IMG/VR virus record: IMGVR_UViG_2531839178_000016
Source of the DNA: a virus
Taxonomy: Duplodnaviria > Heunggongvirae > Uroviricota > Caudoviricetes
Length of the DNA: 16,801 nt
Direction: 5' to 3' (one strand)
The notes beneath the pieces are model-generated. The model saw only the letters and a list, made by a program, of their open reading frames with translations, did not search any database and was not told where the DNA came from. Both the position numbers and the translations under genes were made by a program. Of this stretch, positions 1 through 16,801 are shown one piece after another; within the stretch, counting starts at the first letter, position 1; each line of letters begins with the position of its first letter.

Positions 1-1206
<1,206 letters not shown>

Positions 1207-1899: not shown

Positions 1900-2588
1900 T
1901 AGTTATTAACCCCCCATTGTTCTCCAAATACAAAACCAATTTCCGCCAGTGCTTCGTCCATTTTGTCGATGAACTCCGGCACCATCTCATCAAAACTCGT
2001 CATGTACTTTTCATCCCGCTCGACCACGACATAATGCAGGCCTTCACGCTTCATGCGTGGGTCGTAGTTGGCGAAGTACCAGGCGTCCTTGTCTGTAACC
2101 CACATGCTGAATTGCACCTGGGCCATGTAAGCAGGCTTGATAGCGTCAAAGCCGCCAAGCCGGAACTTCATGAAGTCGCGGGAAGTGAAGGGGCATTTAA
2201 GCTCAAGGCCGTTACCGTCGCTGCATAAACCGTCGGGAGAGCAGGCGGTGCGCATGCTTTCGTCACGAAAAATTATTGGCGTTTCCGAGACGGTAACATC
2301 CGCGATAAATTCGAAGATGGCACGGGCATCATCTTCGTATTGCTTTCCCCATGCGAGCGACTTAGCGTTAACTTCCGGTGCCACGCCGGTACAAACTTCA
2401 GCCAGCAGGGTGTGGAAGTATGAGATTTTTGTATCAGGCCATTTGCTGCCGGAACGTGGCTTTGCTATCACATTGTGAACTTCTGAAGCAGTGATAACAC
2501 CGAGTCTCAGCTTGTGCCATCCATCATCGCCCTGGTCGAGGCTGGTAATATCCACGCCAGTTCGCTGGAGAATAATTTCTGGTGTCAT
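1899..2588 (-). CDS. exo: lambda-type exonuclease (Red-alpha / YqaJ family)
   Basis: 229-aa protein co-linear with recalled lambda Exo (MTP.IILQRTG..., [86 protein letters not shown]). Start overlaps the recT stop (ATGA). Confidence 0.9.
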
Positions 2589-3190
2589 GACACGGCCTCG
2601 CTGCTATTTTCCGTGGTGGCGTGAATTTTCGCTTCCGCCGTGGCCTTGTTTCTGGCAGCTTTCTTTTTGACAAAATCAAGCGTTTTGACAGCTTCTTCCT
2701 GACTGAGATATTCATGTGATGCAATCGTGCGACGGAATGTTTTGGAACATAAGGGAAGCAGGTCATCCCATGTCTTGTTAATTTCGGTGATTGCCTGAGT
2801 GATCTCATTGATAATCTCATCTGATGCGGGAGTGACGTCACGCTCAGGGATGTGATCAGCATTCAGGATGATACCTTCACCGGCCTGAGTGTTCAGGTAG
2901 TCGATAGCTGTATCCAGGCGATCGCGACGGGGCCAGTATTTGCTGGCGCGCTTAACAATGGCTTTTCTGGCCATTTCATCGGGGAAACTATCCCACGGGC
3001 TACTTCCTCCGTTATTTCCGGCTTTGCTGCACGCCCTGATGACCTCGATTTCCCTGTTGCTCATCTCTTCGGTCAGATAGTCGCCTTCGGATGTTTTTAC
3101 GACACAATAACCGCCAATGCGTGCGCCCCTGTCTACGAATGGGTTGTATTTGTGCGTGGGGGCGCAGTCAATACCGTTGGACTCGTAAAT
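2585..3190 (-). pseudogene. recT: recT/bet-type single-strand annealing protein, C-terminal two-thirds (5-prime end removed by IS600 insertion at 3190/3191)
   Basis: The reading frame is open from the IS600 boundary: IYESNGIDCAPTHKYNPFVDRGARIGGYCVVKTSEGDYLTEEMSNREIEVIRACSKAGNNGGSSPWDSFPDEMARKAIVKRASKYWP..., which parallels E. coli RecT (...VTHVYAVARLKDGGTQFEVMTRKQIELVRSLSKAGNNGPW...MAKKTAIRRLFKYLP). The N-terminal part is at 11944..12291. Confidence 0.8.
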
Positions 3191-3254
3191 TGAGGTAGCC
3201 TGAGTTTAACGGACACTCCTTCCTGAAATAGAATGGCATCAGAAGGAGCTAATA

Positions 3255-3517
3255 ATGAGCAGAAAAACCCAACGTTACTCTAAAGAGTTCAAAGCCGAAG
3301 CTGTCAGAACGGTTCTTGAAAATCAACTTTCGATCAGTGAAGGCGCTTCCCGATTATCCCTTCCTGAAGGCACTTTAGGACAATGGGTTACCGCCGCCAG
3401 AAAAGGACTCGGTACTCCTGGTTCCCGCACGGTGGCTGAACTGGAATCTGAAATTCTGCAACTGCGTAAGGCGTTAAATGAAGCTCGCCTTGAGCGAGAT
3501 ATATTAAAAAAAGCAAC
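3255..3517 (+). pseudogene. IS600 orfA, interrupted by IS30 after ...ERDILKKAT
   Basis: MSRKTQRYSKEFKAEAVRTVLENQLSISEGASRLSLPEGTLGQWV... is the IS600 OrfA sequence. The frame reads into the IS30 terminal repeat at 3518. The remaining orfA codons (AYFAQESLKNTR*) resume after IS30 at 4741. Confidence 0.85.
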
Positions 3518-4738
3518 TGTAGATTCAATTGGTCAACGCAACAGTTATGTGAAAACATGGGGTCGCGGAGGTTTTTTGAATGAGACGAACATTTACAGCA
3601 GAGGAAAAAGCCTCTGTTTTTGAACTATGGAAGAACGGAACAGGCTTCAGTGAAATAGCGAATATCCTGGGTTCAAAACCCGGAACGATCTTCACTATGT
3701 TAAGGGATACTGGCGGCATAAAACCCCATGAGCGTAAGCGGGCTGTAGCTCACCTGACACTGTCTGAGCGCGAGGAGATACGAGCTGGTTTGTCAGCCAA
3801 AATGAGCATTCGTGCGATAGCTACTGCGCTGAATCGCAGTCCTTCGACGATCTCACGTGAAGTTCAGCGTAATCGGGGCAGACGCTATTACAAAGCTGTT
3901 GATGCTAATAACCGAGCCAACAGAATGGCGAAAAGGCCAAAACCGTGCTTACTGGATCAAAATTTACCATTGCGAAAGCTTGTTCTGGAAAAGCTGGAGA
4001 TGAAATGGTCTCCAGAGCAAATATCAGGATGGTTAAGGCGAACAAAACCACGTCAAAAAACGCTGCGAATATCACCTGAGACAATTTATAAAACGCTGTA
4101 CTTTCGTAGCCGTGAAGCGCTACACCACCTGAATATACAGCATCTGCGACGGTCGCATAGCCTTCGCCATGGCAGGCGTCATACCCGCAAAGGCGAAAGA
4201 GGTACGATTAACATAGTGAACGGAACACCAATTCACGAACGTTCCCGAAATATCGATAACAGACGCTCTCTGGGGCATTGGGAGGGCGATTTAGTCTCAG
4301 GTACAAAAAACTCTCATATAGCCACACTTGTAGACCGAAAATCACGTTATACGATCATCCTTAGACTCAGGGGCAAAGATTCTGTCTCAGTAAATCAGGC
4401 TCTTACCGACAAATTCCTGAGTTTACCGTCAGAACTCAGAAAATCACTGACATGGGACAGAGGAATGGAACTGGCCAGACATCTAGAATTTACTGTCAGC
4501 ACCGGCGTTAAAGTTTACTTCTGCGATCCTCAGAGTCCTTGGCAGCGGGGAACAAATGAGAACACAAATGGGCTAATTCGGCAGTACTTTCCTAAAAAGA
4601 CATGTCTTGCCCAATATACTCAACATGAACTAGATCTGGTTGCTGCTCAGCTAAACAACAGACCGAGAAAGACACTGAAGTTCAAAACACCGAAAGAGAT
4701 AATTGAAAGGGGTGTTGCATTGACAGATTGAATCTACA
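3518..4738 (+). mobile_element. IS30 (complete, 1221 bp) nested in IS600; flanked by 2-bp duplication AC
   Basis: Terminal repeats TGTAGATTCAATTGGTCAACGC (3518) and GCATTGACAGATTGAATCTACA (ends 4738). AC is present on both flanks (3516..3517 and 4739..4740). Confidence 0.95.
3580..4731 (+). CDS. insI: IS30 transposase (383 aa)
   Basis: Full-length ORF with N-terminal HTH and C-terminal DDE-type catalytic domain, bounded by IS30 inverted repeats. Identical translation to the copy at 13238..14389. Confidence 0.95.
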   Translation: MRRTFTAEEKASVFELWKNGTGFSEIANILGSKPGTIFTMLRDTGGIKPHERKRAVAHLTLSEREEIRAGLSAKMSIRAIATALNRSPSTISREVQRNRGRRYYKAVDANNRANRMAKRPKPCLLDQNLPLRKLVLEKLEMKWSPEQISGWLRRTKPRQKTLRISPETIYKTLYFRSREALHHLNIQHLRRSHSLRHGRRHTRKGERGTINIVNGTPIHERSRNIDNRRSLGHWEGDLVSGTKNSHIATLVDRKSRYTIILRLRGKDSVSVNQALTDKFLSLPSELRKSLTWDRGMELARHLEFTVSTGVKVYFCDPQSPWQRGTNENTNGLIRQYFPKKTCLAQYTQHELDLVAAQLNNRPRKTLKFKTPKEIIERGVALTD

Positions 4739-4815
4739 ACAGCGTATTTTGCACAGGAGTCGCTGAAAAATACGCGTTAATCGAACAATGGCGACAACAA
4801 TTTCCCATTGAAGCG

Positions 4816-5634
4816 ATGTGTCAGGTATTTGGTGTATCCAGGAGCGGTTATTACAACTGGGTACAGCATGAACCCTCAGACAGAAAACAAAGTGATGAGC
4901 GGCTAAAACTGGAGATTAAGGTGGCACATATCCGCACTCGCGAAACATATGGAACCCGGCGGCTCCAGACGGAGCTGGCAGAGAATGGCATCATCGTTGG
5001 TCGTGACCGACTGGCACGTCTTCGTAAGGAGCTAAGGCTACGCTGTAAGCAGAAACGCAAGTTCAGAGCGACTACGAACCCGAACCACAATCTGCCAGTT
5101 GCGCCAAATCTGCTGAACCAGACGTTCGCTCCTACAGCACCAAATCAGGTCTGGGTGGCGGACCTGACGTATGTTGCCACACAGGAGGGATGGTTGTACC
5201 TCGCTGGCATCAAAGATGTTTATACGTGCGAAATTGTCGGCTACGCCATGGGAGAGCGCATGACAAAAGAGCTGACAGGTAAAGCCCTGTTTATGGCGCT
5301 CAGGAGCCAGCGCCCACCTGCCGGGCTAATCCACCACTCTGATCGAGGTTCACAGTACTGCGCATACGATTACCGGGTCATACAGGAGCAGTTTGGTCTG
5401 AAAACATCAATGTCGCGTAAAGGTAACTGTTACGACAACGCTCCGATGGAAAGCTTCTGGGGAACGCTGAAAAATGAGAGCCTGAGCCACTATCGTTTTA
5501 ATAACCGGGATGAAGCCATCTCAGTAATACGGGAATACATTGAGATTTTCTACAATCGTCAGCGTCGTCACTCTCGTCTGGGGAATATCTCCCCGGCAGC
5601 CTTCAGGGAAAAATATCATCAGATGGCTGCTTAA
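4816..5634 (+). CDS. IS600 transposase OrfB frame (DDE integrase); the OrfAB fusion is prevented by the IS30 insertion
   Basis: 272-aa ORF with IS3-family motifs (WVADLTYV, HSDRGSQYCA, GNCYDNAPMESFW). Matches recalled IS600 OrfB. Confidence 0.85.
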   Translation: MCQVFGVSRSGYYNWVQHEPSDRKQSDERLKLEIKVAHIRTRETYGTRRLQTELAENGIIVGRDRLARLRKELRLRCKQKRKFRATTNPNHNLPVAPNLLNQTFAPTAPNQVWVADLTYVATQEGWLYLAGIKDVYTCEIVGYAMGERMTKELTGKALFMALRSQRPPAGLIHHSDRGSQYCAYDYRVIQEQFGLKTSMSRKGNCYDNAPMESFWGTLKNESLSHYRFNNRDEAISVIREYIEIFYNRQRRHSRLGNISPAAFREKYHQMAA

Positions 5635-7136
5635 AAAAAGAACAAATGGTAGTGTCCGCTATTGCCAGTACACCTCATTGACTTGATGAAATTGTGCACT
5701 TCAACCGAGGTTTGCAGCGGCGCGTTACTGAAGCCTTTAGGCCACACCCCGAACTTCTCTTTGTAGGTATGAGCGCACCATCCGTCACTCAGTGGCTTAC
5801 CTGTCGCGTTGCGGTAATTCTGATAGCCCTTGATCTCACTCCACCACCGCTGTTTTTCCTCACGGCTGTATTCGCGTTTCCCTTTGTTTACGCGAGAGAG
5901 TTTTCGATCGCGGTCTGTTGCCACATCATCGCCACCAAGAGGACGAAACCCACATTTGGGACACATGTGTACACCAGCAGGCTTCATGAAGTGGCATTTG
6001 GGGCATTCTCTGGGAAGTTTTTCAGCTTTAACCTCGCCACCGCCAGCAGACGCTTTCATTCCGTCATTTTTGCCCGGCAGTTCGTCATACTCGATATCCT
6101 CGGGGAAACCCAGCCGATGAACCGTGCCAGAATGGTCGAAAATCAACGCACGTTGTTTACCTGGGGCTGTACGTAACGCTCTACCTATGCACTGCAACCA
6201 ACGGATTTCTGATTTTGTCGGACGGGCATAGATCAGGCAGCGAACATCGCTGTCAAATCCCGCAACCAGTACGCCGACGTTGACAATTATTTTGGTCACG
6301 CCCTCTTCAAAACGGCGAATGATGTCCTGTCGTTCATCATGGAGGGTATCTGCCGTCATCACCTCTGCGCCAATACCGGCCTGTAAAAACTCACGGGTAA
6401 CAAAATTCGCATGCGCAACATTCACACAGAAGCAGATCGTCGGCAAATCCTCACCATTCTCAAGCCAGTTGCGAACGATATCGCCAACCAGATCCGAACT
6501 CCCCATGATGGATGCGAGCTGCTCCTCGTTGTAATCCCGTCCAAATACGGTGTTACTGGTTTTTACGCCAGCCAGATCAGGCATTGAGGGGGCAAAAAAC
6601 TCATAATCGCTCAGATCACCACGCTGAATAAGTTCACGAATCGTTGTAGGCTTGATCAGGCATTCGTAGTACTTCCCCATCCAGGCTGCGAACGGGGTAC
6701 CGGAAAGTCCAAGAACCCTGATGTCTCTGTCCCGGATAACCTCAAGTAACGCACGACGCTTCATGTGTGCTTCATCGATGATCAGCAGATCGATGTTGTT
6801 AGGAAACTCACGACGGATCAGCGTGTCGGCACTGGCAATCTGAATCAGTCGTGACGGGTCATAGTTAGGGTGATCACGCCATACAAAACTGATTTCTTCC
6901 CACGGCAAACCGTATTCGGTGAAACGTTCCGCTGTCTGGTTCAGCAGGATGGTGTACGGACAGACAAACATCACTCGCATACCACGTTCAACCATTCCGG
7001 CGGTGACGAATGCTGCAAGACCAGTTTTGCCAGAGCCAGTGGGTGCATACATCAGGTACGTGCGATGCTGTTTCCACTGGTGCCGCAGCTGGTTTAAACC
7101 GCGCTCCTGAGCAAAGTTTGGGATTATTTTCAGCAT
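5631..7136 (-). CDS. SF2 DEAH-box helicase (ResIII-like core plus C-terminal zinc ribbon); native 3-prime end replaced by IS600 sequence from 5677 downward
   Basis: Motif I APTGSGKT, motif II LLIIDEAH, motif III SGTPF, motif VI QCIGRALR, then CPKCHF...CPKCGF zinc ribbon. The last about 15 codons (MRCTGNSGHYHLFFF) lie in the IS600 right end. Start overlaps the stop of the upstream 128-aa gene (ATGCTGA). Confidence 0.85.
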   Translation of the reverse strand: MLKIIPNFAQERGLNQLRHQWKQHRTYLMYAPTGSGKTGLAAFVTAGMVERGMRVMFVCPYTILLNQTAERFTEYGLPWEEISFVWRDHPNYDPSRLIQIASADTLIRREFPNNIDLLIIDEAHMKRRALLEVIRDRDIRVLGLSGTPFAAWMGKYYECLIKPTTIRELIQRGDLSDYEFFAPSMPDLAGVKTSNTVFGRDYNEEQLASIMGSSDLVGDIVRNWLENGEDLPTICFCVNVAHANFVTREFLQAGIGAEVMTADTLHDERQDIIRRFEEGVTKIIVNVGVLVAGFDSDVRCLIYARPTKSEIRWLQCIGRALRTAPGKQRALIFDHSGTVHRLGFPEDIEYDELPGKNDGMKASAGGGEVKAEKLPRECPKCHFMKPAGVHMCPKCGFRPLGGDDVATDRDRKLSRVNKGKREYSREEKQRWWSEIKGYQNYRNATGKPLSDGWCAHTYKEKFGVWPKGFSNAPLQTSVEVHNFIKSMRCTGNSGHYHLFFF

Positions 7137-7516
7137 GACGCCCCCTTGCTACGTGATTTACCCGTTGCCGGGATCACGTCGATCTCATCGCTAACGTATT
7201 GATCCGGATTACGTGAACAGCGCAGAAGCACGATACCAGGAATGCCGTATAGCTTGAGTCTGCGCAGTTTCAGTATTGAACGTGCCCGTGGTGACGCTCT
7301 GTCCACCTCGATCGCGCACCGTTCACCAGATGGGGCAACGACCATGATATCGACGAATCCGCGCTTACCGTTGCCCATATCAACCAGATAATTACGTTCG
7401 ATCGCCAGTCCGGCATCACGCAATTTGGCAGCCAGCACATAATCAAACGTGACCTTGTCTTTTCCGGTGTAGAATTTGTTTCCGAGCAGGCTGATAACCA
7501 CATGTTTGATGAACAT
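7130..7516 (-). CDS. hypothetical protein (128 aa), translationally coupled to the helicase; possible nuclease-like fold (very tentative)
   Basis: ORF with ATG start and coupled stop/start overlap with the helicase. Contains D...E.D spacing (GFVDIMVV...AIEVD) reminiscent of, but not diagnostic for, PD-(D/E)xK nucleases. Confidence 0.5.
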   Translation of the reverse strand: MFIKHVVISLLGNKFYTGKDKVTFDYVLAAKLRDAGLAIERNYLVDMGNGKRGFVDIMVVAPSGERCAIEVDRASPRARSILKLRRLKLYGIPGIVLLRCSRNPDQYVSDEIDVIPATGKSRSKGASC

Positions 7517-7697
7517 GGTACTATTTCCACCGTAATGGTTAGTGTAATAACAATTTCTCCAAAAACCATCTCACCCTATACAGTGATCTACCTAACCTAT
7601 GGAGCTGCCTTCCTCTGGTAGTGCCCTTACAGGCACGGATGTTACAGATCTGCCCCCTTACCCCCTTCTTAGTAAAATTTCAAGCGCAATGGTTTCA

Positions 7698-7714
7698 TGT
7701 GAAATCATTTCACA
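7698..7714. repeat. perfect 17-bp palindrome TGTGAAATCATTTCACA (candidate operator or protein-binding site)
   Basis: Read directly from sequence. Lies in the 220-bp intergenic region between the 93-aa gene and the 128-aa/helicase genes. Confidence 0.6.
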
Positions 7715-7736
7715 AAAATAATCACCTTGATGAGAT

Positions 7737-8018
7737 CTATTCCTTCCGTATCGCTACTGGCGAAAGCATCCAGCCACGGCTGGCTCTCGCGTACTTCTGG
7801 ACATACACCCGTAACCGGGTGTTGGCGCTCCGTCTTGCCCTGTTGCCCTTCCTGAACGATACAGGCTCCTTGTCCCACTCTTCCTGGTACACTCTCGCGT
7901 ACTCTGCTGCAATTTTTACCCTGGTGGTCGGGTCTAGCTGTAACAATTGCTCCTGTATCCAGTCCCGATCAGCATCACAGTACTGATCGGGCATAACCGT
8001 TTTGATTTGCCTGTTCAC
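7737..8018 (-). CDS. hypothetical protein (93 aa) in the cII-equivalent position; GTG start
   Basis: GTG start preceded by GGAGG at 5-nt spacing, 22 bp downstream of the cro-like stop on the same strand. Charged helical-looking sequence, no recognisable family. Confidence 0.5.
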   Translation of the reverse strand: MNRQIKTVMPDQYCDADRDWIQEQLLQLDPTTRVKIAAEYARVYQEEWDKEPVSFRKGNRARRSANTRLRVYVQKYARASRGWMLSPVAIRKE

Positions 8019-8040: not shown

Positions 8041-8280
8041 TCAGGCTGTTTGCCTTACATGAAGCGGAATACCATCTTCCATGTTTAGGTAGTCATGCGG
8101 GTTTAGTTCATGGGGAGTTACATTCCAGTCTGTAGCTTTTGCCCATTCAATGGCTTTCCGCCCCTGAGGCATGTATCTCCCTGTAATAACCCCACTGACA
8201 AATCCCTGAGAAACTCCAACAATCGCCGCAAAATCGGCTTGTCTGATAGAGCTTTGTCTCAAGTACTCGTCAAGAGTCAT
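8041..8280 (-). CDS. cro: Cro-like small HTH regulator (79 aa)
   Basis: Divergent from cI across a 105-bp region. Size and HTH-like segment (QADFAAIVGVSQGFVSGVITGRYMP) fit Cro/YdaS-type proteins. GGGAGG RBS 6 nt before ATG. Confidence 0.65.
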   Translation of the reverse strand: MTLDEYLRQSSIRQADFAAIVGVSQGFVSGVITGRYMPQGRKAIEWAKATDWNVTPHELNPHDYLNMEDGIPLHVRQTA

Positions 8281-8385
8281 AGAGATCCTCCCATTTCAAT
8301 TTTCCGATATTAGCTTACCTGATTTAAATGTCAATAGGCTAGCTATTTGATAAATATTTGTGTTGCTAATAAAATCGGAGGCACT
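8281..8385. promoter_or_regulatory. cI/cro divergent control region (PR- and PRM-like promoters; operator sites not resolved)
   Basis: Minus strand: -35 TTGACA (8329..8334), 16-bp spacer, -10 TAATAT (8307..8312), driving cro. Plus strand: -35 TTGATA (8347..8352), 17-bp spacer, -10 TAAAAT (8370..8375), giving a nearly leaderless cI transcript. Predicted start sites are about 82 bp apart. Confidence 0.6.
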
Positions 8386-9105
8386 ATGACGAAGAAAATT
8401 ACAATTACTGACAAAGACATCCAGAACGCTGAACGACTGCGCAAAATCTGGGATGAAAAACGGAAACAGCTATCCCTAAGCCAGGAAAAAGCCGCAGATA
8501 TCCTCGGCTTCAAAACGCAGGGGGCTGTTAGTCAGTTATTGAACGCAAAAATTGCGTTAAATACTGAAAATACCCTTAAGTTTGCGGCTTTATTACAGGT
8601 TCCTGCGGAAGAAATTAATCCAGATCTGAGTGATTTGTTACGCAGTATTCGTACCCACACACCGGGAAACAGGCGTAACCTGTTCGAGAAATATTACGAA
8701 TATCCGTTACTCTCCTGCGTACAGGCTGGAGCTTTCTCAATGGATGATTTTTCGTACACCGCAAAGGATGCGATTAAGTGGATCTCCACCACCACAAAAG
8801 CCAGTGACAGGTCGTTCTGGCTGGAGGTCAAGGGGCATTCAATGACCGCGCCGCAGGGTGGTAAACCCAGTTTCCCCGAAGGGATGCTGATACTCGTTGA
8901 CCCTGAGCGGGAGATTGAGGATGGCGATTTTTGCGTGGCCCGAATGAATGGCGATGAATTCACCTTCAAACGATTCATTCGTGAGAGCGGTAAAGCGTAC
9001 CTGGAGCCACTCAACCCACGATTCGACATGATTGAGTGTAACGAAAACTGCCAGTTTGTCGGAAAGGTCATAAAGTCGCAGTGGAATGATGAGACTTTTG
9101 ATTGA
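8386..9105 (+). CDS. cI: CI-type prophage repressor (HTH plus LexA-like S24 autopeptidase domain), 239 aa
   Basis: Co-linear with recalled lambda CI: Ala-Gly cleavage site (CVQAGAFS), catalytic Ser (GHSMTAP) and Lys (FTFKRF), [33 protein letters not shown] at 8386 preceded by GGAG. Confidence 0.9.
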
Positions 9106-9511: not shown

Positions 9512-9856
9512 TTAAGCCCCTGTGTGATGGTTGACTTCTTTTTCCAGCGCCTTATTAACAAAGGCGTTCAGTGATAAATCTTCTTCCATCGCCATTTCAG
9601 CGACCCGACGATGCAGTTCTGGATCAAGTCTGACGTTAAACACACCTTTAAACGGGGTATCAGGCTCCTTTCCATCCTCCACACAAGACTGTAAATACAG
9701 CTCAACCGATGTCTTAAACTCCTGTTCCAGTTCAGCTAATGTAGAAGCCTCATAAGTTACCAGGTCTCGAATAAACGCCAGTTTTCCGTACAGGATATTA
9801 TTTTCAAAATCTGGTTCTACTGTACCTAAATATCCTTTATATTTTAGATGATTCAT
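9512..9856 (-). CDS. hicB: HicB-family antitoxin (114 aa)
   Basis: N-terminal HicB fold motifs (YKGYLGTVE...FYGK...IRDLVTYEASTLAELEQEF) and C-terminal ribbon-helix-helix-like tail (FNVRLDPELHRRVAEMAMEEDLSLNAFVNKALE). Start overlaps the hicA stop (ATGA). Confidence 0.8.
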   Translation of the reverse strand: MNHLKYKGYLGTVEPDFENNILYGKLAFIRDLVTYEASTLAELEQEFKTSVELYLQSCVEDGKEPDTPFKGVFNVRLDPELHRRVAEMAMEEDLSLNAFVNKALEKEVNHHTGA

Positions 9857-10107
9857 AATACCCCAGCCTCTTTCAGATTCTGTTTAATCGCTTTCAGCGT
9901 TCCACCTTTAATATAACTTTCTGGATGTGGGCGATGCATTAATATGGTGTGGTTGATTTCAGCATTGAAAAACCGCACTCTTGAGCCCTGCATTTCCTTT
10001 TTGACATATCCCAGAGAGGAAAACAAAACGACCAACTCATCCCATTCAAACGTTTTTTTACTGTTTAAAAACTTTTCCAGTAGCTTATCTGCTTTCCCCA
10101 TACCCAC
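9853..10107 (-). CDS. hicA: HicA-family toxin (mRNA interferase), about 82-84 aa; start at GTG 10107 or ATG 10101
   Basis: C-terminal HicA signature (GSRVRFFNAEINHTILMHRPHPESYIKGGTLKAIKQNLKEAGVL). Toxin-first order with 4-bp overlap onto hicB. Confidence 0.8.
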   Translation of the reverse strand: MGMGKADKLLEKFLNSKKTFEWDELVVLFSSLGYVKKEMQGSRVRFFNAEINHTILMHRPHPESYIKGGTLKAIKQNLKEAGVL

Positions 10108-10759: not shown

Positions 10760-10819
10760 TGGCGAACACCTCATAAAACGGGTGCCGGGATTAGCACCCC
10801 GAAAGTTACTCGAGCGCAT

Positions 10820-10842
10820 AACCGCGCTGAAGCGGTTTTTTT
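10820..10842 (+). terminator. intrinsic terminator inside the rha leader, about 75 nt downstream of the predicted start site
   Basis: AACCGC-GCTGAA-GCGGTT followed by TTTTTTT. Flanked by an outer inverted repeat CGCATA...TATGCG. Confidence 0.6.
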
Positions 10843-11008
10843 ATGCGTAATGCACAGCCACATTCAAATTATGGTGAGGCGTGCGGGGCAGCCGCAAGGC
10901 TGGCCGGGTTCTCGAGTGACCGGTAGTGCTAACCCTGTGCGTCTCACCACCCATGAGATTAGCACCTCTGGTGGTGAGTTAATTAACTTATCACTTGAGG
11001 ATGTCATT

Positions 11009-11647
11009 ATGGCTACTACCCTTTCTCACCCTGACGTAACCATCGAAAATGGTCGCGCCGTCACTACTTCTATTTCGATTGCTGAGTTTTTTGGCAAGCA
11101 GCATCACCATGTTGTTCAGAAAATAGAATCCCTCGAATGCTCTGAGCAATTCTTAACCCGCAACTTTTCGCGGGTTAAATTCGAACACCGAGGCAATACC
11201 TATAACGCCTACCAAATCACCAAAAACGGCTTCGTTTTTCTGGTGATGGGCTTCACCGGCAAAAAAGCAGCTGCATTCAAGGAAGCCTACATTGCTGAAT
11301 TCGATCGCATGGAAAAACAACTATGGGAACAGAAACAACTGGCCCTGTCTTCTCCTGCGATGAATATCAATTTCCCTTTATCGTGGTTTTCAGAGCATCA
11401 CCCCTATGCCACGATGAACTATGTTGATAGAAATACATTGCAGCTTGATACCTCCGTCTTATTCGACATGCCAAGCCCTGCAATGCGCATATTTAATGAA
11501 TTACGTCGTAACGGCTATAACGTCGATGCGGCTGTCGCCGAATTTAACGCCTTCAAGCATCTGACGGAAGAAATGCGCCGTAAATTGCTGGATATTTCCT
11601 GCACATCGGAAAAGTCTTCCCGCTTTGGTTTCAACGTTAATCTTTAA
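11009..11647 (+). CDS. rha: Rha-family phage regulatory protein (212 aa)
   Basis: N-terminal Rha-type region (VTTSISIAEFFGKQHHHVVQKIESLECSEQFLTRNF...YQITKNGFVFLVMGFTGKKAAAFKEAYIAEFDRME). Start ATG at 11009 chosen for GAGG RBS at 8-nt spacing; the longer ORF from 10850 overlaps the structured leader. Confidence 0.75.
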   Translation: MATTLSHPDVTIENGRAVTTSISIAEFFGKQHHHVVQKIESLECSEQFLTRNFSRVKFEHRGNTYNAYQITKNGFVFLVMGFTGKKAAAFKEAYIAEFDRMEKQLWEQKQLALSSPAMNINFPLSWFSEHHPYATMNYVDRNTLQLDTSVLFDMPSPAMRIFNELRRNGYNVDAAVAEFNAFKHLTEEMRRKLLDISCTSEKSSRFGFNVNL

Positions 11648-11717: not shown

Positions 11718-11783
11718 ATGCTCAAACCTCACTACGGAACCGCATTAGTTTCTCGCGAGGACGTTAAACCCCATTGCTTATGA
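11718..11783 (+). CDS. candidate micro-ORF (21 aa) with strong RBS
   Basis: GGAGG 7 nt upstream of ATG. Stop overlaps the start of the next ORF (ATGA). Confidence 0.3.
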   Translation: MLKPHYGTALVSREDVKPHCL

Positions 11784-11926
11784 GCAGCCTTTTTTTACCC
11801 AAAGAAGCCCAACTGGCACTCACTGGCGAAAAAGCTGAAGAGGCGTACAACGATTATATCTCAGCGATCGCCTATGCTCGGGCGGAAGAAGAATGGGAGA
11901 GAAAATTCTCCCCCTGTCCTTTCTGA
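11780..11926 (+). CDS. candidate small ORF (48 aa) immediately upstream of recT
   Basis: MSSLFLPKEAQLALTGEKAEEAYNDYISAIAYARAEEEWERKFSPCPF. Coupled to the preceding micro-ORF. Occupies the position of gam/kil/cIII-type small genes. Confidence 0.35.
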   Translation: MSSLFLPKEAQLALTGEKAEEAYNDYISAIAYARAEEEWERKFSPCPF

Positions 11927-11943
11927 TTTTCAGGACCAAAAAA

Positions 11944-12291
11944 ATGTTCGATATCGTTGAATTTGTTAAGCAGCAGGAGCGCTTTTTCTGCAAGGCATTA
12001 ACTGAACCGACGCTGACATGGGCGAAGGAAAGTCAGTTTGCAATTCAGCAATTCCAGAAAAATGCCTTTCTGGCTGACACAGCACGGGCAAATCTGCCCA
12101 GCGCACAGAACGCTATCATCAATGTTGCCGCCATCGGCATAACCCTGAACCCGGCCAGCAAGCTGGCGTATCTGGTCCCACGAAAAAAGGCTGTATGCCT
12201 GGATATCAGTTATATGGGGCTTCTGCATCTGGCACAGGTCACAGGAGCCATTCAGTGGGGGCAATGCAAACTTGTTTACGAGAAGGACATT
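11944..12291 (+). pseudogene. recT: recT/bet-type single-strand annealing protein, N-terminal third (3-prime part removed by IS600 at 12291/12292)
   Basis: ...NAIINVAAIGITLNPASKLAYLVPRKKAVCLDISYMGLLHLAQVTGAIQWGQCKLVYEKDI parallels the RecT N-terminal region (SAIVQCSQLGLEPGS...AYLLPFG...GYRGMIDLARRSGQI...VVREGDE). The frame runs into the IS600 end. An alternative start at 11893 is possible. Confidence 0.75.
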
Positions 12292-12334
12292 TGAGGTGTA
12301 CTGGCAATAGCGGACACTACCATTTGTTCTTTTT

Positions 12335-13153
12335 TTAAGCAGCCATCTGATGATATTTTTCCCTGAAGGCTGCCGGGGAGATATTCCCCAGACGAGAGTG
12401 ACGACGCTGACGATTGTAGAAAATCTCAATGTATTCCCGTATTACTGAGATGGCTTCATCCCGGTTATTAAAACGATAGTGGCTCAGGCTCTCATTTTTC
12501 AGCGTTCCCCAGAAGCTTTCCATCGGAGCGTTGTCGTAACAGTTACCTTTACGCGACATTGATGTTTTCAGACCAAACTGCTCCTGTATGACCCGGTAAT
12601 CGTATGCGCAGTACTGTGAACCTCGATCAGAGTGGTGGATTAGCCCGGCAGGTGGGCGCTGGCTCCTGAGCGCCATAAACAGGGCTTTACCTGTCAGCTC
12701 TTTTGTCATGCGCTCTCCCATGGCGTAGCCGACAATTTCGCACGTATAAACATCTTTGATGCCAGCGAGGTACAACCATCCCTCCTGTGTGGCAACATAC
12801 GTCAGGTCCGCCACCCAGACCTGATTTGGTGCTGTAGGAGCGAACGTCTGGTTCAGCAGATTTGGCGCAACTGGCAGATTGTGGTTCGGGTTCGTAGTCG
12901 CTCTGAACTTGCGTTTCTGCTTACAGCGTAGCCTTAGCTCCTTACGAAGACGTGCCAGTCGGTCACGACCAACGATGATGCCATTCTCTGCCAGCTCCGT
13001 CTGGAGCCGCCGGGTTCCATATGTTTCGCGAGTGCGGATATGTGCCACCTTAATCTCCAGTTTTAGCCGCTCATCACTTTGTTTTCTGTCTGAGGGTTCA
13101 TGCTGTACCCAGTTGTAATAACCGCTCCTGGATACACCAAATACCTGACACAT
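12335..13153 (-). CDS. IS600 transposase OrfB frame
   Basis: Translation identical to 4816..5634. Confidence 0.85.
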   Translation of the reverse strand: MCQVFGVSRSGYYNWVQHEPSDRKQSDERLKLEIKVAHIRTRETYGTRRLQTELAENGIIVGRDRLARLRKELRLRCKQKRKFRATTNPNHNLPVAPNLLNQTFAPTAPNQVWVADLTYVATQEGWLYLAGIKDVYTCEIVGYAMGERMTKELTGKALFMALRSQRPPAGLIHHSDRGSQYCAYDYRVIQEQFGLKTSMSRKGNCYDNAPMESFWGTLKNESLSHYRFNNRDEAISVIREYIEIFYNRQRRHSRLGNISPAAFREKYHQMAA

Positions 13154-13230
13154 CGCTTCAATGGGAAATTGTTGTCGCCATTGTTCGATTAACGCGTATT
13201 TTTCAGCGACTCCTGTGCAAAATACGCTGT

Positions 13231-14451
13231 TGTAGATTCAATCTGTCAATGCAACACCCCTTTCAATTATCTCTTTCGGTGTTTTGAACTTCAGTGTCTT
13301 TCTCGGTCTGTTGTTTAGCTGAGCAGCAACCAGATCTAGTTCATGTTGAGTATATTGGGCAAGACATGTCTTTTTAGGAAAGTACTGCCGAATTAGCCCA
13401 TTTGTGTTCTCATTTGTTCCCCGCTGCCAAGGACTCTGAGGATCGCAGAAGTAAACTTTAACGCCGGTGCTGACAGTAAATTCTAGATGTCTGGCCAGTT
13501 CCATTCCTCTGTCCCATGTCAGTGATTTTCTGAGTTCTGACGGTAAACTCAGGAATTTGTCGGTAAGAGCCTGATTTACTGAGACAGAATCTTTGCCCCT
13601 GAGTCTAAGGATGATCGTATAACGTGATTTTCGGTCTACAAGTGTGGCTATATGAGAGTTTTTTGTACCTGAGACTAAATCGCCCTCCCAATGCCCCAGA
13701 GAGCGTCTGTTATCGATATTTCGGGAACGTTCGTGAATTGGTGTTCCGTTCACTATGTTAATCGTACCTCTTTCGCCTTTGCGGGTATGACGCCTGCCAT
13801 GGCGAAGGCTATGCGACCGTCGCAGATGCTGTATATTCAGGTGGTGTAGCGCTTCACGGCTACGAAAGTACAGCGTTTTATAAATTGTCTCAGGTGATAT
13901 TCGCAGCGTTTTTTGACGTGGTTTTGTTCGCCTTAACCATCCTGATATTTGCTCTGGAGACCATTTCATCTCCAGCTTTTCCAGAACAAGCTTTCGCAAT
14001 GGTAAATTTTGATCCAGTAAGCACGGTTTCGGCCTTTTCGCCATTCTGTTGGCTCGGTTATTAGCATCAACAGCTTTGTAATAGCGTCTGCCCCGATTAC
14101 GCTGAACTTCACGTGAGATCGTCGAAGGACTGCGATTCAGCGCAGTAGCTATCGCACGAATGCTCATTTTGGCTGACAAACCAGCTCGTATCTCCTCGCG
14201 CTCAGACAGTGTCAGGTGAGCTACAGCCCGCTTACGCTCATGGGGTTTTATGCCGCCAGTATCCCTTAACATAGTGAAGATCGTTCCGGGTTTTGAACCC
14301 AGGATATTCGCTATTTCACTGAAGCCTGTTCCGTTCTTCCATAGTTCAAAAACAGAGGCTTTTTCCTCTGCTGTAAATGTTCGTCTCATTCAAAAAACCT
14401 CCGCGACCCCATGTTTTCACATAACTGTTGCGTTGACCAATTGAATCTACA
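13231..14451 (-). mobile_element. IS30 (complete, 1221 bp) nested in IS600 copy 2
   Basis: Same terminal repeats as 3518..4738. Same right-hand junction sequence (ACAGCGTATT) as copy 1. Confidence 0.95.
13238..14389 (-). CDS. insI: IS30 transposase (383 aa)
   Basis: Translation identical to 3580..4731. Confidence 0.95.
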   Translation of the reverse strand: MRRTFTAEEKASVFELWKNGTGFSEIANILGSKPGTIFTMLRDTGGIKPHERKRAVAHLTLSEREEIRAGLSAKMSIRAIATALNRSPSTISREVQRNRGRRYYKAVDANNRANRMAKRPKPCLLDQNLPLRKLVLEKLEMKWSPEQISGWLRRTKPRQKTLRISPETIYKTLYFRSREALHHLNIQHLRRSHSLRHGRRHTRKGERGTINIVNGTPIHERSRNIDNRRSLGHWEGDLVSGTKNSHIATLVDRKSRYTIILRLRGKDSVSVNQALTDKFLSLPSELRKSLTWDRGMELARHLEFTVSTGVKVYFCDPQSPWQRGTNENTNGLIRQYFPKKTCLAQYTQHELDLVAAQLNNRPRKTLKFKTPKEIIERGVALTD

Positions 14452-14659
14452 GTTGCAGAATTTCAGATTCCAGTTCAGCCACCGTGCGGGAACCAGGAGT
14501 ACCGAGTCCTTTTCTGGCGGCGGTAACCCATTGTCCTAAAGTGCCTTCAGGAAGGGATAATCGGGAAGCGCCTTCACTGATCGAAAGTTGATTTTCAAGA
14601 ACCGTTCTGACAGCTTCGGCTTTGAACTCTTTAGAGTAACGTTGGGTTTTTCTGCTCAT
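14452..14659 (-). pseudogene. IS600 orfA fragment, shortened by a 55-bp deletion next to the IS30 IRL
   Basis: OrfA reads MSRKTQ...ELESEILQL and then meets IS30. Copy 1 has a further 18 codons (RKALNEARLERDILKKAT) before IS30. Confidence 0.8.
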
Positions 14660-14859
14660 TATTAGCTCCTTCTGATGCCATTCTATTTCAGGAAGGAGTG
14701 TCCGTTAAACTCAGGCTACCTCAAAGGACCGAACAAACGAAACAGCAATGAGACCGTTGCGAAAAGCGACAATAGACAAATTCCCTGAATATATCGACCC
14801 GCGCCTGCGTAATTACCGCTCACGCTATGGCGCTATCAGTAATGACTGAGGAATTTACC

Positions 14860-15621
14860 ATGAGAGGACTTGCATACAATCCCGGCATTCTTCCGGCAGA
14901 AATGATTATTCGCCAACGCGTAAAGCCAATGCCATCGAGAGAGGAATTGCTTAAGAGAAATTCTTTTCCGTCAGTGAATCAAAAACAAATATCTGAATGC
15001 TATGTGGCGCAAAGGAGGCAAACAGTGAGCGAAATTGACTATCAGGCACTGCGTGAAAAGGCAGAGAAAGCAACGTGGGGTGTGTGGTCGCTCGAATATG
15101 GAGAGGAGAAACTTGATGCTGATGATGCGCTAATTCACCGTGAAGTTGTTGGATATCTTCCTATTTGCAGAATTGAAGGAGCGCATCCTGAAAGCGGTTT
15201 CGATGAAGATTTCCAAATGGAACAGCAGGCCAATGCTGAATTCATCGCCGCAGCCAATCCGGCTACTGTGCTGACACTGCTGAGCGAGCTGGAAACAGCA
15301 AAAAAGCGCATAGCAGAACTGGAAGCCAAACCTGTAAGCCAGACTTACAAGTTGAATGAGATGTCGGGCAACTCTCCGGTAATTCCGGATGGTTGGATAA
15401 GCTGTAGTGATCGAATGCCTGAAAAGGGCCAGAACGTACTTATTTCGGTGAATTTCGATAGCTCTCTGGTTGAACCGCTAATATGCTCCGCACGCTATAC
15501 CGGAGGTACATTCCGGCGTGGAGATGTAACGGTTAAGCCAGGTAATGGTATTGAACAGGCAACCCACTGGATAGACTGGCCCCCTGAATCTCCAGACAAC
15601 CAGTATCACTTAAATAAGTGA
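14860..15621 (+). CDS. Ead/Ea22-like phage protein with C-terminal DUF551-like domain; native C-terminus replaced by IS2-derived codons
   Basis: Ea22-like motifs ([40 protein letters not shown]) then a DUF551-like segment ([20 protein letters not shown]...ATHW). IS2 begins at 15573, so the last 16 codons are IS-derived. GAGGA RBS before ATG 14860; alternative start at 14827. Confidence 0.6.
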
Positions 15622-15804: not shown

Positions 15805-16687
<883 letters not shown>

Positions 16688-16691
<4 letters not shown>

Positions 16692-16801
16692 TTTTTCCAG
16701 AGGCGGTCGAACTCCGCCTTCGCAAAATAAGCGGAAGCCTGGCGAAGGATATCGTTACTGCGGCGCAGTTCACGATTTTCACGCTCCAGCTCTTTCAGAC
16801 G
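16688..16801 (-). CDS. IS629 orfA C-terminal part (partial at window edge)
   Basis: Minus-strand translation ...[37 protein letters not shown] with the A-run frameshift motif (GGAAAAAATGATG) at the orfA/orfB overlap. Confidence 0.8.

Follow-up and report, generated by a model that had tools for sequence, protein, structure and literature searches.

The closest described counterpart of the locus considered here is Eru1 (enterohaemorrhagic Escherichia coli phage replication unit 1), defined by Llarena et al. (2021; PMC8044961) as a helicase gene (eru1A), a gene for a Toprim protein (eru1B) and a gene for a DUF1367 protein (eru1C), with membership decided in practice by more than 80% coverage of eru1A-C. 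The unit is carried by phages of the O103:H25 (2006) and O104:H4 (2011) outbreak strains (PMC8044961; PMC8951638), and the phage yield of Eru1 phages is 1e7-8e8 plaque-forming units (PFU)/ml (PMC8044961). Its function was assigned by position only, the description naming the helicase, primase and NinB and leaving two small open reading frames (ORFs) undiscussed (PMC8044961). A full-text literature search returned no later work on Eru1. I consider here a segment of IMG/VR record IMGVR_UViG_2531839178_000016, a stretch of 16,801 nt (hereafter the window) that is what remains of a lambdoid prophage and contains many insertion sequences. The segment carries two small ORFs and a superfamily 2 (SF2) helicase ORF in the position where cII, O and P would be expected. 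A preliminary description had suggested that it could be an atypical replication or recombination module without O or P, or an embedded accessory system; the position and the lack of O and P stand, while the module as a whole is already known, having been named in 2021, and is not of a new kind. With a probability of roughly 80%, it corresponds to the portion of the published Eru1 replication region nearest the promoter, from a lambdoid prophage resembling Shiga toxin (Stx) phages (Sepvirinae/Oslovirus-like), made non-functional by an IS600::IS30 insertion and later rearrangement.

Downstream of the rightward early promoter (PR) the minus strand carries, in order, cro, the 93-aa ORF (p93), a spacer of exactly 220 bp (7517-7736), the 128-aa ORF and the helicase ORF. 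The features of the region are as follows.

8347-9105, plus strand: LexA-like cI
8334-8307: PR-like promoter, TTGACA-16-TAATAT
8041-8280, minus strand: cro-like helix-turn-helix (HTH) repressor, first gene of the rightward early operon (Pfam HTH_3, phrog_35)
7737-8018, minus strand: p93, a small basic protein modelled with three helices (phrog_852, E = 5e-43)
7698-7714: perfect 8+8 palindrome TGTGAAAT-n-ATTTCACA, 22 nt downstream of the p93 stop
7653-7665, minus strand (the coding, non-template strand): G-tract GGGGGTAAGGGGG, signature of the type-A non-coding element
7574-7604, minus strand: conserved block CTCCATAGGTTAGGTAGATCACTGTATAGGG, containing a GATC site, about 50 nt downstream of the G-tract at a fixed distance
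7518-7540 (downstream copy) and 7672-7694 (upstream copy), minus strand: 23-nt imperfect direct repeat AACCATTRCG..T.GAAAT..TAC
7130-7516, minus strand: 128-aa protein of predicted PD-(D/E)xK nuclease fold, a stand-alone form of the phrog_1347 domain, its stop overlapping the helicase ATG
5678-7136, minus strand: Eru1A, SF2 DEAH helicase, codons 1-486 only, the ORF running on to 5631 through IS600

A megablast search with positions 5600-8350 matches, at 95-99% identity, at least 151 phage records; Stx-converting phages and Shigella phage Ss-VASD account for nearly all of these, and many E. coli prophages match as well. (The 2886 matching E. coli genomes do not measure the prevalence of the module, since 78 nt of the query are IS600 and swell the count.) In the relatives (the E2855 prophage, Lyz12581Vzw and TL-2011c) the gene order is cI, cro, a small hypothetical, a 125-128-aa hypothetical, the helicase (506 aa), a primase of 323 aa (Zn_Ribbon_Prim/DUF7146/Toprim_3), NinB (DUF1367), NinG, NinH and Q. 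The Cro protein of the window is 96% identical to that of the E2855 prophage, and its helicase is 97.5-98.8% identical to the helicases of TL-2011c, Lyz12581Vzw and E2855 over residues 1-486 of 506. Eru1A is defined as an SF2 DEAH-box helicase of more than 80% identity lying downstream of cI/cro, and such a gene is present here, 97.5% identical to TL-2011c gp30. The genes eru1B and eru1C, which should lie directly downstream, do not, and only about half of eru1A-C is found in the window, which makes this copy a remnant, an incomplete unit.

As the preliminary description had stated, no O-type initiator, DnaB/DnaC-type protein or primase is recognisable: the module proteins have no match to Phage_rep_O, DnaB or DnaC in Pfam or PHROGs, and the window holds no primase-like stretch. 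It had allowed that a canonical replication module might lie elsewhere in the prophage, and for this family that is not so, to judge by TL-2011c, whose whole 60.5-kb genome has no O/P and no further initiator, helicase or primase gene. In PHROGs the helicase belongs to phrog_16 and the two small proteins to phrog_852 and phrog_1347, both labelled 'unknown function'; neither small protein is discussed in the literature searched, in keeping with the earlier remark that the components appear uncharacterised.

The preliminary description had also reported a 501-aa helicase with a complete set of SF2 motifs and a zinc ribbon. The ORF (5631-7136, minus strand) and the motifs are there; the complete protein is not. 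Similarity to intact helicases ends after residue 486, and the last 15 codons are supplied by IS600, whose terminal inverted repeat ends at 5677. The element exists in two copies.

3190-5677, plus strand: IS600 interrupted by IS30, a composite (RefSeq annotation of identical DNA)
12292-14724: identical, inverted copy of the composite

The two copies form inverted repeats of 2165 and 275 nt at 100% identity. One part of recT lies at 2066-3190 and the other at 11771-12292, and a target duplication of 3 bp (AAT) is present; it follows that IS600 inserted into recT and that recombination between the IS copies afterwards inverted the segment 5678-12291. A simple IS insertion into the helicase is ruled out by the wrong partner flank after the second copy: the DNA from 14725 onward holds an Ead/Ea22-DUF551 gene, with no matching target duplication and no helicase 3' end. 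A further rearrangement has therefore deleted or displaced the primase and the 3' end of the helicase; no primase or NinB-like sequence was found in the window on comparison with relatives (contig L001, 11677-13146). Lack of a primase, which the preliminary description had counted among the properties of the module, is thus the result of IS-mediated truncation, intact relatives carrying a Zn-ribbon/Toprim primase and NinB directly downstream. Two other IMG/VR contigs (L142 and L143) have helicases likewise truncated at residue 486. The copy in the window is a dead remnant of a decayed prophage and, since its helicase is truncated and its primase gone, is unfit for the cloning test that had been proposed for it.

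About 990 complete E. coli genomes contain this IS600::IS30 composite as a unit, and a third, partial IS30 copy stands at the start of the window (1-278). Abutting the outer end of the second IS600 copy is a 264-aa ORF (14827-15621, plus strand) that combines DUF2737, Ead/Ea22 and DUF551.

The helicase consists of a RadD/XPB-like core (Pfam ResIII, DEAD and Helicase_C), a CxxC...CxxC zinc ribbon and a C-terminal domain. Its GSGKT, DEAH, SGTP and QxxGRxxR motifs and the zinc-ribbon cysteines C378, C381, C392 and C395 are invariant among its relatives, and the nearest solved structures are those of RadD (E = 9e-17), XPB and UvsW. It is not an orthologue of RadD (YejH), for it scores 88 bits (E = 4e-25) with the RadD NCBIfam model, of which the cut-off is 720.

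The preliminary description had grouped the two small proteins and the helicase in one module and proposed that their co-occurrence be examined. The true conserved trio proves to be p93, the helicase and the primase, strictly co-occurring and co-evolving, with the 128-aa gene optional. The p93 family comprises 43 homologues in Enterobacterales (E. coli, Salmonella, Serratia, Yersinia, Kosakonia and other genera) with the invariant motif EPVSFR..NRAR..ANTRLR, and in Salmonella, Yersinia and Kosakonia p93 is followed by the SF2 helicase and then the primase, despite differing cI/cro types. At the level of species (30 genomes), helicase and primase follow p93 in 27 of the 28 loci with enough downstream DNA; in the reverse direction, starting from the helicase in IMG/VR, every one of the 74 contigs that extend at least 1.3 kb upstream contains p93. 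Pairwise identities over 81 distinct modules (3240 pairs) correlate among the three proteins with r = 0.91-0.94, p93 giving r = 0.92 with the helicase and r = 0.91 with the primase. Between the two types of origin cassette described below, p93 diverges no more than the helicase or the primase does, which argues that it partners those proteins rather than the origin DNA. By these patterns p93 is a core third component of the helicase-primase module, with a putative function. The translational coupling that had been claimed for the 93-aa ORF is absent: the 220-bp spacer separates it from the 128-aa gene downstream.

The spacer between p93 and the next gene has the length and the perfect palindrome that had been reported. 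The palindrome is unique in the window (0.04 chance matches expected); as a conserved operator or origin element it fails, not being kept even in the closest relatives. What is conserved lies further downstream. The G-tract, which reads GGGGAAGAGGGAAAGGGGGGTAAGGGGGG in most genera and GGGGGTAAGGGGG in the window, is found from E. coli to Serratia, Yersinia and Pectobacterium. Of 33 p93-helicase spacers, 28 contain it in the general form G5+-N2-3-G5+, in every case on the coding strand, and 723 kb of flanking DNA yields no instance on either strand. It is followed by a block with the consensus CCATAGGTTA(A/G)GTAGATC (in the succession GGGGGTAAGGGGG then CCATAGGTTAGGTAGATC), the columns of which are invariant or nearly so across 14 diverse loci; the block motif is present in 23 of the 33 spacers and absent from the flanking background. 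The two copies of the 23-nt direct repeat, 78% identical and spaced by 154 nt, bracket the G-tract and block, a pattern of uncertain significance as there are two copies only; in other lineages GTACTAG-N-TAGTAC palindromes often bracket the same core. Over the spacer core RNAalifold gives no conserved RNA fold (-1.5 kcal/mol, no covariation), and Rfam gives no sensible match at E<=1 to a nut/put-like RNA or small RNA (sRNA) in the spacer, from which I conclude that the element is conserved as DNA sequence. No intrinsic terminator was found in the spacer.

In the minority of lineages whose modules are without the G-tract element, its place is taken by a RepL-like winged-helix protein (PF05732, scoring over the gathering threshold), accompanied by TTAAAAATCAAT.GTTA motifs and by iteron-like repeats that are palindromic. 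This second cassette was seen in five contigs (L165, L147, L183, L193 and L092), where the RepL-like protein is of 144-178 aa and the repeats are lineage-specific, e.g., TCCCACAGTATGGGA twice or repeats of CGGAACAGTTTGTTCC. That two interchangeable cassettes occupy one position, one of them like a classical origin of iterons plus initiator, is the main argument for regarding the spacer as an origin, and the element of G-tract and block is on these comparative grounds a candidate replication origin.

The first 80 nt or so after p93 in the spacers of contigs L097-L115 contain one or two short hairpins with a conserved loop, TTAAAGGT or TTGAAGGT, and stems that covary (CGGG/CCCG, CAGGC/GCCTG, CTGAC/GTCAG). 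These hairpins of other genera, which lie where the window has its palindrome and may be a boxB-like RNA or a single-strand DNA signal, are absent from the window.

The 128-aa protein is optional. Its gene is present in 4 of the 28 species-level loci and in 27 of the 74 viral contigs, most of the 27 being near-identical E. coli phages, and the slot is otherwise empty (180-440 bp) or occupied by HNH/NUMOD4 I-HmuI-like endonucleases or RepL-like genes. The gene is thus an occupant of the interval between the non-coding element and the helicase, dispensable for the unit. The reported coupling to the helicase holds in the window, where stop and start overlap by 7 nt (ATGCTGA); elsewhere there are gaps of 2-121 nt.

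No match to the protein was found in Pfam (E<=0.1), NCBIfam or PADLOC. A word-indexed search gave only near-identical E. coli homologues, and an exhaustive phmmer search reached fusions with O, yielding 74 relatives that are either stand-alone proteins of about 120 aa or internal domains of proteins of 300-490 aa. Several of the larger ones are O-like initiators with an N-terminal Phage_rep_O domain. The 128-aa protein itself is not a lambda O-type initiator: it has no Phage_rep_O domain, and its matches among O-like proteins are confined to the middle domain inserted in some of them. Structural comparison predicts that it adopts a PD-(D/E)xK fold with an alpha-beta-beta-beta-alpha-beta core. 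Residues E70, D72, R77, S80 and K83 are invariant, and D56 is Asp in most members of the family. The nuclease-like D...E.D spacing noted in the preliminary description is real and conserved, as D56...E70-x-D72, with Asp at the Lys position of the D...(D/E)-x-K motif. The placement of the three residues on strands 2 and 3 resembles the D...ExE arrangement of BamHI. Of the profile and structure searches proposed for the small proteins, then, those on the 128-aa protein found a fold; those on p93 gave three helices and a family of 'unknown function'.

One explanation of the 128-aa protein, which I regard as a serious possibility if somewhat short of an even chance, is that it is a free-standing endonuclease of the homing type, a selfish gene without a role in replication that spreads by cutting 'empty' alleles and being copied during repair. 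The gene is polymorphic in presence at a fixed site between conserved flanks. The window allele is identical to that of E2855 and only 37% identical to the 125-aa allele of TL-2011c, within flanks at least 97% identical, and the divergence spills into adjacent DNA as co-conversion tracts would. An HNH/NUMOD4 I-HmuI-like endonuclease gene sharing the slot likewise overlaps the helicase ATG by 7 nt, and a gene for an HNH_3 plus AP2 endonuclease between helicase and primase (contig L098, 8325-8822, and L110) marks a second insertion point. The domain is fused to HNH in one relative (P0104), and it is a discrete insert in O-like initiators of which close relatives, adjoining DnaB-type helicases, exist with and without the insert of about 130 aa. 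The fold and the conserved acidic triad would also suit such an enzyme. What tells against it is that the domain is always in or beside replication-initiation genes, in a slot that holds a RepL-like initiator in other lineages, which could mean a replication function; that in-frame insertion of a domain without an intein is unusual for homing endonucleases; and that 5 of 20 diverse members have Asn in place of D56.

A pair of O-like initiators (L012, 5001-6485, and L025, 5001-6077, in IMG/VR) have near-identical N- and C-termini; one carries the PD-(D/E)xK domain of about 130 aa and a diverged segment of about 90 aa following it, and the other is without the domain.

The protein may instead, and I put this forward tentatively, be a functional accessory of initiation, an origin- or structure-specific DNA-binding or nicking factor that works with the helicase and whose alleles set origin specificity. 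The fusion inside O-like origin-binding initiators that lie directly upstream of DnaB-type helicases can be read as a Rosetta stone for such a role; the position equals that of the RepL-like initiators; and the invariant R77, S80 and K83, on a helix, suggest contacts with DNA. The closest analogy would be the archaeal pair of XPB helicase and Bax1 nuclease, but the match to Bax1 is one among many generic PD-(D/E)xK matches. Similarly, the translational coupling to the helicase that speaks for an accessory is not universal, given the gaps seen in other loci, and about two-thirds of type-A modules have the same non-coding element and no 128-aa gene, so the protein is not essential. The facts fit either a selfish nuclease of the homing type or a dispensable accessory of initiation.

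For p93 an alternative lies in its position. A small basic protein that occupies the cII position, in Eru1 phages without a recognisable CII, might be a regulator of lysis and lysogeny analogous to CII that merely follows cro and takes no part in replication. I judge this improbable. An hhalign comparison with lambda CII (the CII query sequence was entered by hand) gives a probability of 0.1%; at least three kinds of cI/cro are found with the set of p93, helicase and primase; in Yersinia p93 is separated from cro by a further ORF; and the divergence of p93 tracks that of the helicase and primase (r about 0.91). No match to p93 was found in Pfam (E<=0.1), NCBIfam or PADLOC, further searches by fold and sequence were uninformative, and the AF2 model (three helices) has a pLDDT of 77. 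The start of the protein may be placed in two ways. The GTG at 8018 is preceded by a GGAGG Shine-Dalgarno sequence (8028-8024), while conservation in the family begins at Met9-Pro10, and an alternative ATG at 7994 would give an 85-aa product in the style of RefSeq, plausible even though the GTG has much the better Shine-Dalgarno sequence.

Very improbable is an embedded anti-phage defence or exclusion system (a moron), which the preliminary description had entertained: a small nuclease with an SF2 helicase is a common defence architecture and the helicase weakly matches PbeA, type IV restriction endonuclease (REase), DpdF and Cas3 models, but PADLOC 2.0 gives only generic SF2-core matches for the helicase, nothing specific, and none at all for either small protein, the nuclease is optional, and the helicase always stands in the O/P position with p93 before it and the primase after it, co-evolving with both, these three being the only replication-type genes in TL-2011c.

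Returning to the module as a replication unit, the rightward early operon of intact relatives runs cro, p93, a conserved non-coding element of about 200-440 bp, the optional slot gene, Eru1A, Eru1B, NinB, NinG and Q, and O/P genes are lacking throughout their genomes. Initiation may use a transcription-generated R-loop at the non-coding element downstream of PR, an idea suggested by the runs of G on the non-template strand just downstream of PR, by the lack of a dedicated origin-binding protein in type-A modules and by the RadD/XPB/UvsW-like helicase. Helicase and primase would act on the R-loop, and host Pol III would then extend. In such a scheme p93 might be an adaptor or loader of the helicase-primase pair, not an origin binder, and the 128-aa protein an add-on nuclease or DNA-binding module on replication-initiation genes, whether a selfish gene like a homing endonuclease or an accessory of initiation.

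Put at its fullest, the proposal would be that the G-tract and block constitute a new type of origin, without an origin-binding protein, fired by a PR-driven R-loop or a hybrid stabilised by a G-quadruplex that is processed by the SF2 helicase, the p93 adaptor and the Toprim primase; that this origin is interchangeable with a cassette of iterons and a RepL-like protein; and that the 128-aa protein belongs to a family, so far undescribed, of small PD-(D/E)xK elements which colonise replication-initiation genes specifically, free-standing or in-frame in O proteins. As a joint claim this is unlikely to hold in all its parts. Several points weigh against the reading of the locus as a whole. The replication role of the eru1 genes in the original publication is a positional assignment. 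The R-loop idea is drawn solely from base composition and position, and the G-tract is degenerate in Gilliamella loci as well as absent from those of the RepL type. The replacement of D56 by Asn in a quarter of the members means that nuclease activity is not assured. The fate of the primase is seen only within the 16.8-kb window. Finally, SF2 helicases of the RadD/XPB/UvsW type usually serve repair or remodelling rather than replication, and host DnaB may still be needed.

Other observations concern the surroundings of the module. Next to cI lies a HicA toxin/HicB antitoxin pair (9512-10107, minus strand), at a site where relatives have a BsuBI/PstI-type restriction-modification pair and a SocA/Panacea pair. 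Rfam finds isrK (10766-10842) and C4 antisense RNA (10867-10954) at the start of an ORF with Ash and Rha domains (10850-11647, plus strand), and the region 10766-11647 (plus strand) resembles the antisense-controlled antirepressor region of P1/P7, here inside a lambdoid prophage. A transposase ORF of the IS3 family lies at 360-1199, and a further IS3-family element (15805-16733, minus strand) has transposase ORFs and an ALIL frameshifting pseudoknot (16617-16733). In Kosakonia contigs L010 and L011 (8247-9217 and 10739-12258) the primase is split into two ORFs, as is the helicase of L011, and a Ser/Thr kinase and PP2C phosphatase pair follows the antiterminator.

As lysogens, Stx phages of the Eru1 type are reported to have much lower stability than those of the lambda type (PMC8044961), and the way in which they replicate therefore bears on toxin output. 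To the published unit the comparison adds p93 as a universal third component, a conserved candidate origin with an alternative cassette of RepL and iterons, and an undescribed small domain, predicted to be of the PD-(D/E)xK type, that rides on replication-initiation genes and is optional in Eru1.

Among known systems there is a likeness to the R-loop origins of ColE1, T7, T4 and mitochondria, an analogy that consists in runs of G on the non-template strand just downstream of a strong early promoter, type-A modules without an origin-binding protein and an SF2 helicase like UvsW and RadD. The spacer element has no sequence similarity to those origins, and its RNA-DNA hybrid is hypothetical. Phage homing endonucleases (I-HmuI/NUMOD4-HNH, T4 seg/mob) resemble the 128-aa gene in their patchy occurrence between conserved essential genes, in the slot it has in common with HNH/NUMOD4 genes and in the divergence of adjacent DNA; the predicted PD-(D/E)xK fold is rare among homing enzymes, however, the domain is found also in-frame within initiators, and homing by it is putative. 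With PD-(D/E)xK nucleases (AF1548, NucS, BamHI and the Bax1 nuclease domain) the 128-aa protein appears from structural comparison to share the core fold, with acidic residues placed on strands 2 and 3. It differs in having Asp for Lys, in its very small size (about 125 aa), in its absence from Pfam and NCBIfam, in an activity that is only predicted and in the helix of invariant R77, S80 and K83, which is no signature of a defined family.

From lambda O/P and from Eru2 and Eru3 (O-like initiator plus DnaB-type helicase) the module differs in having no Phage_rep_O domain, no in-gene iterons and no P/DnaB/DnaC-type protein, and in that the Eru1 helicase is of SF2 rather than a DnaB-type hexamer and a phage primase is encoded. 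It occupies the same genomic slot, is like them transcribed early from PR, and has in the 128-aa protein a domain found inside some O-like initiators of that type. Closest of all is Eru1 of TL-2011c, of the P13374/O104:H4-type phages and of Lyz12581Vzw. The window copy departs from it in being cut at helicase codon 486, without eru1B and eru1C (NinB), and from TL-2011c in particular by the E2855-type slot allele and another Cro type; it shares with Eru1 the position after cI/cro, the lack of O/P, a helicase 97.5-98.8% identical, a p93 ORF about 98% identical and the core of the spacer.

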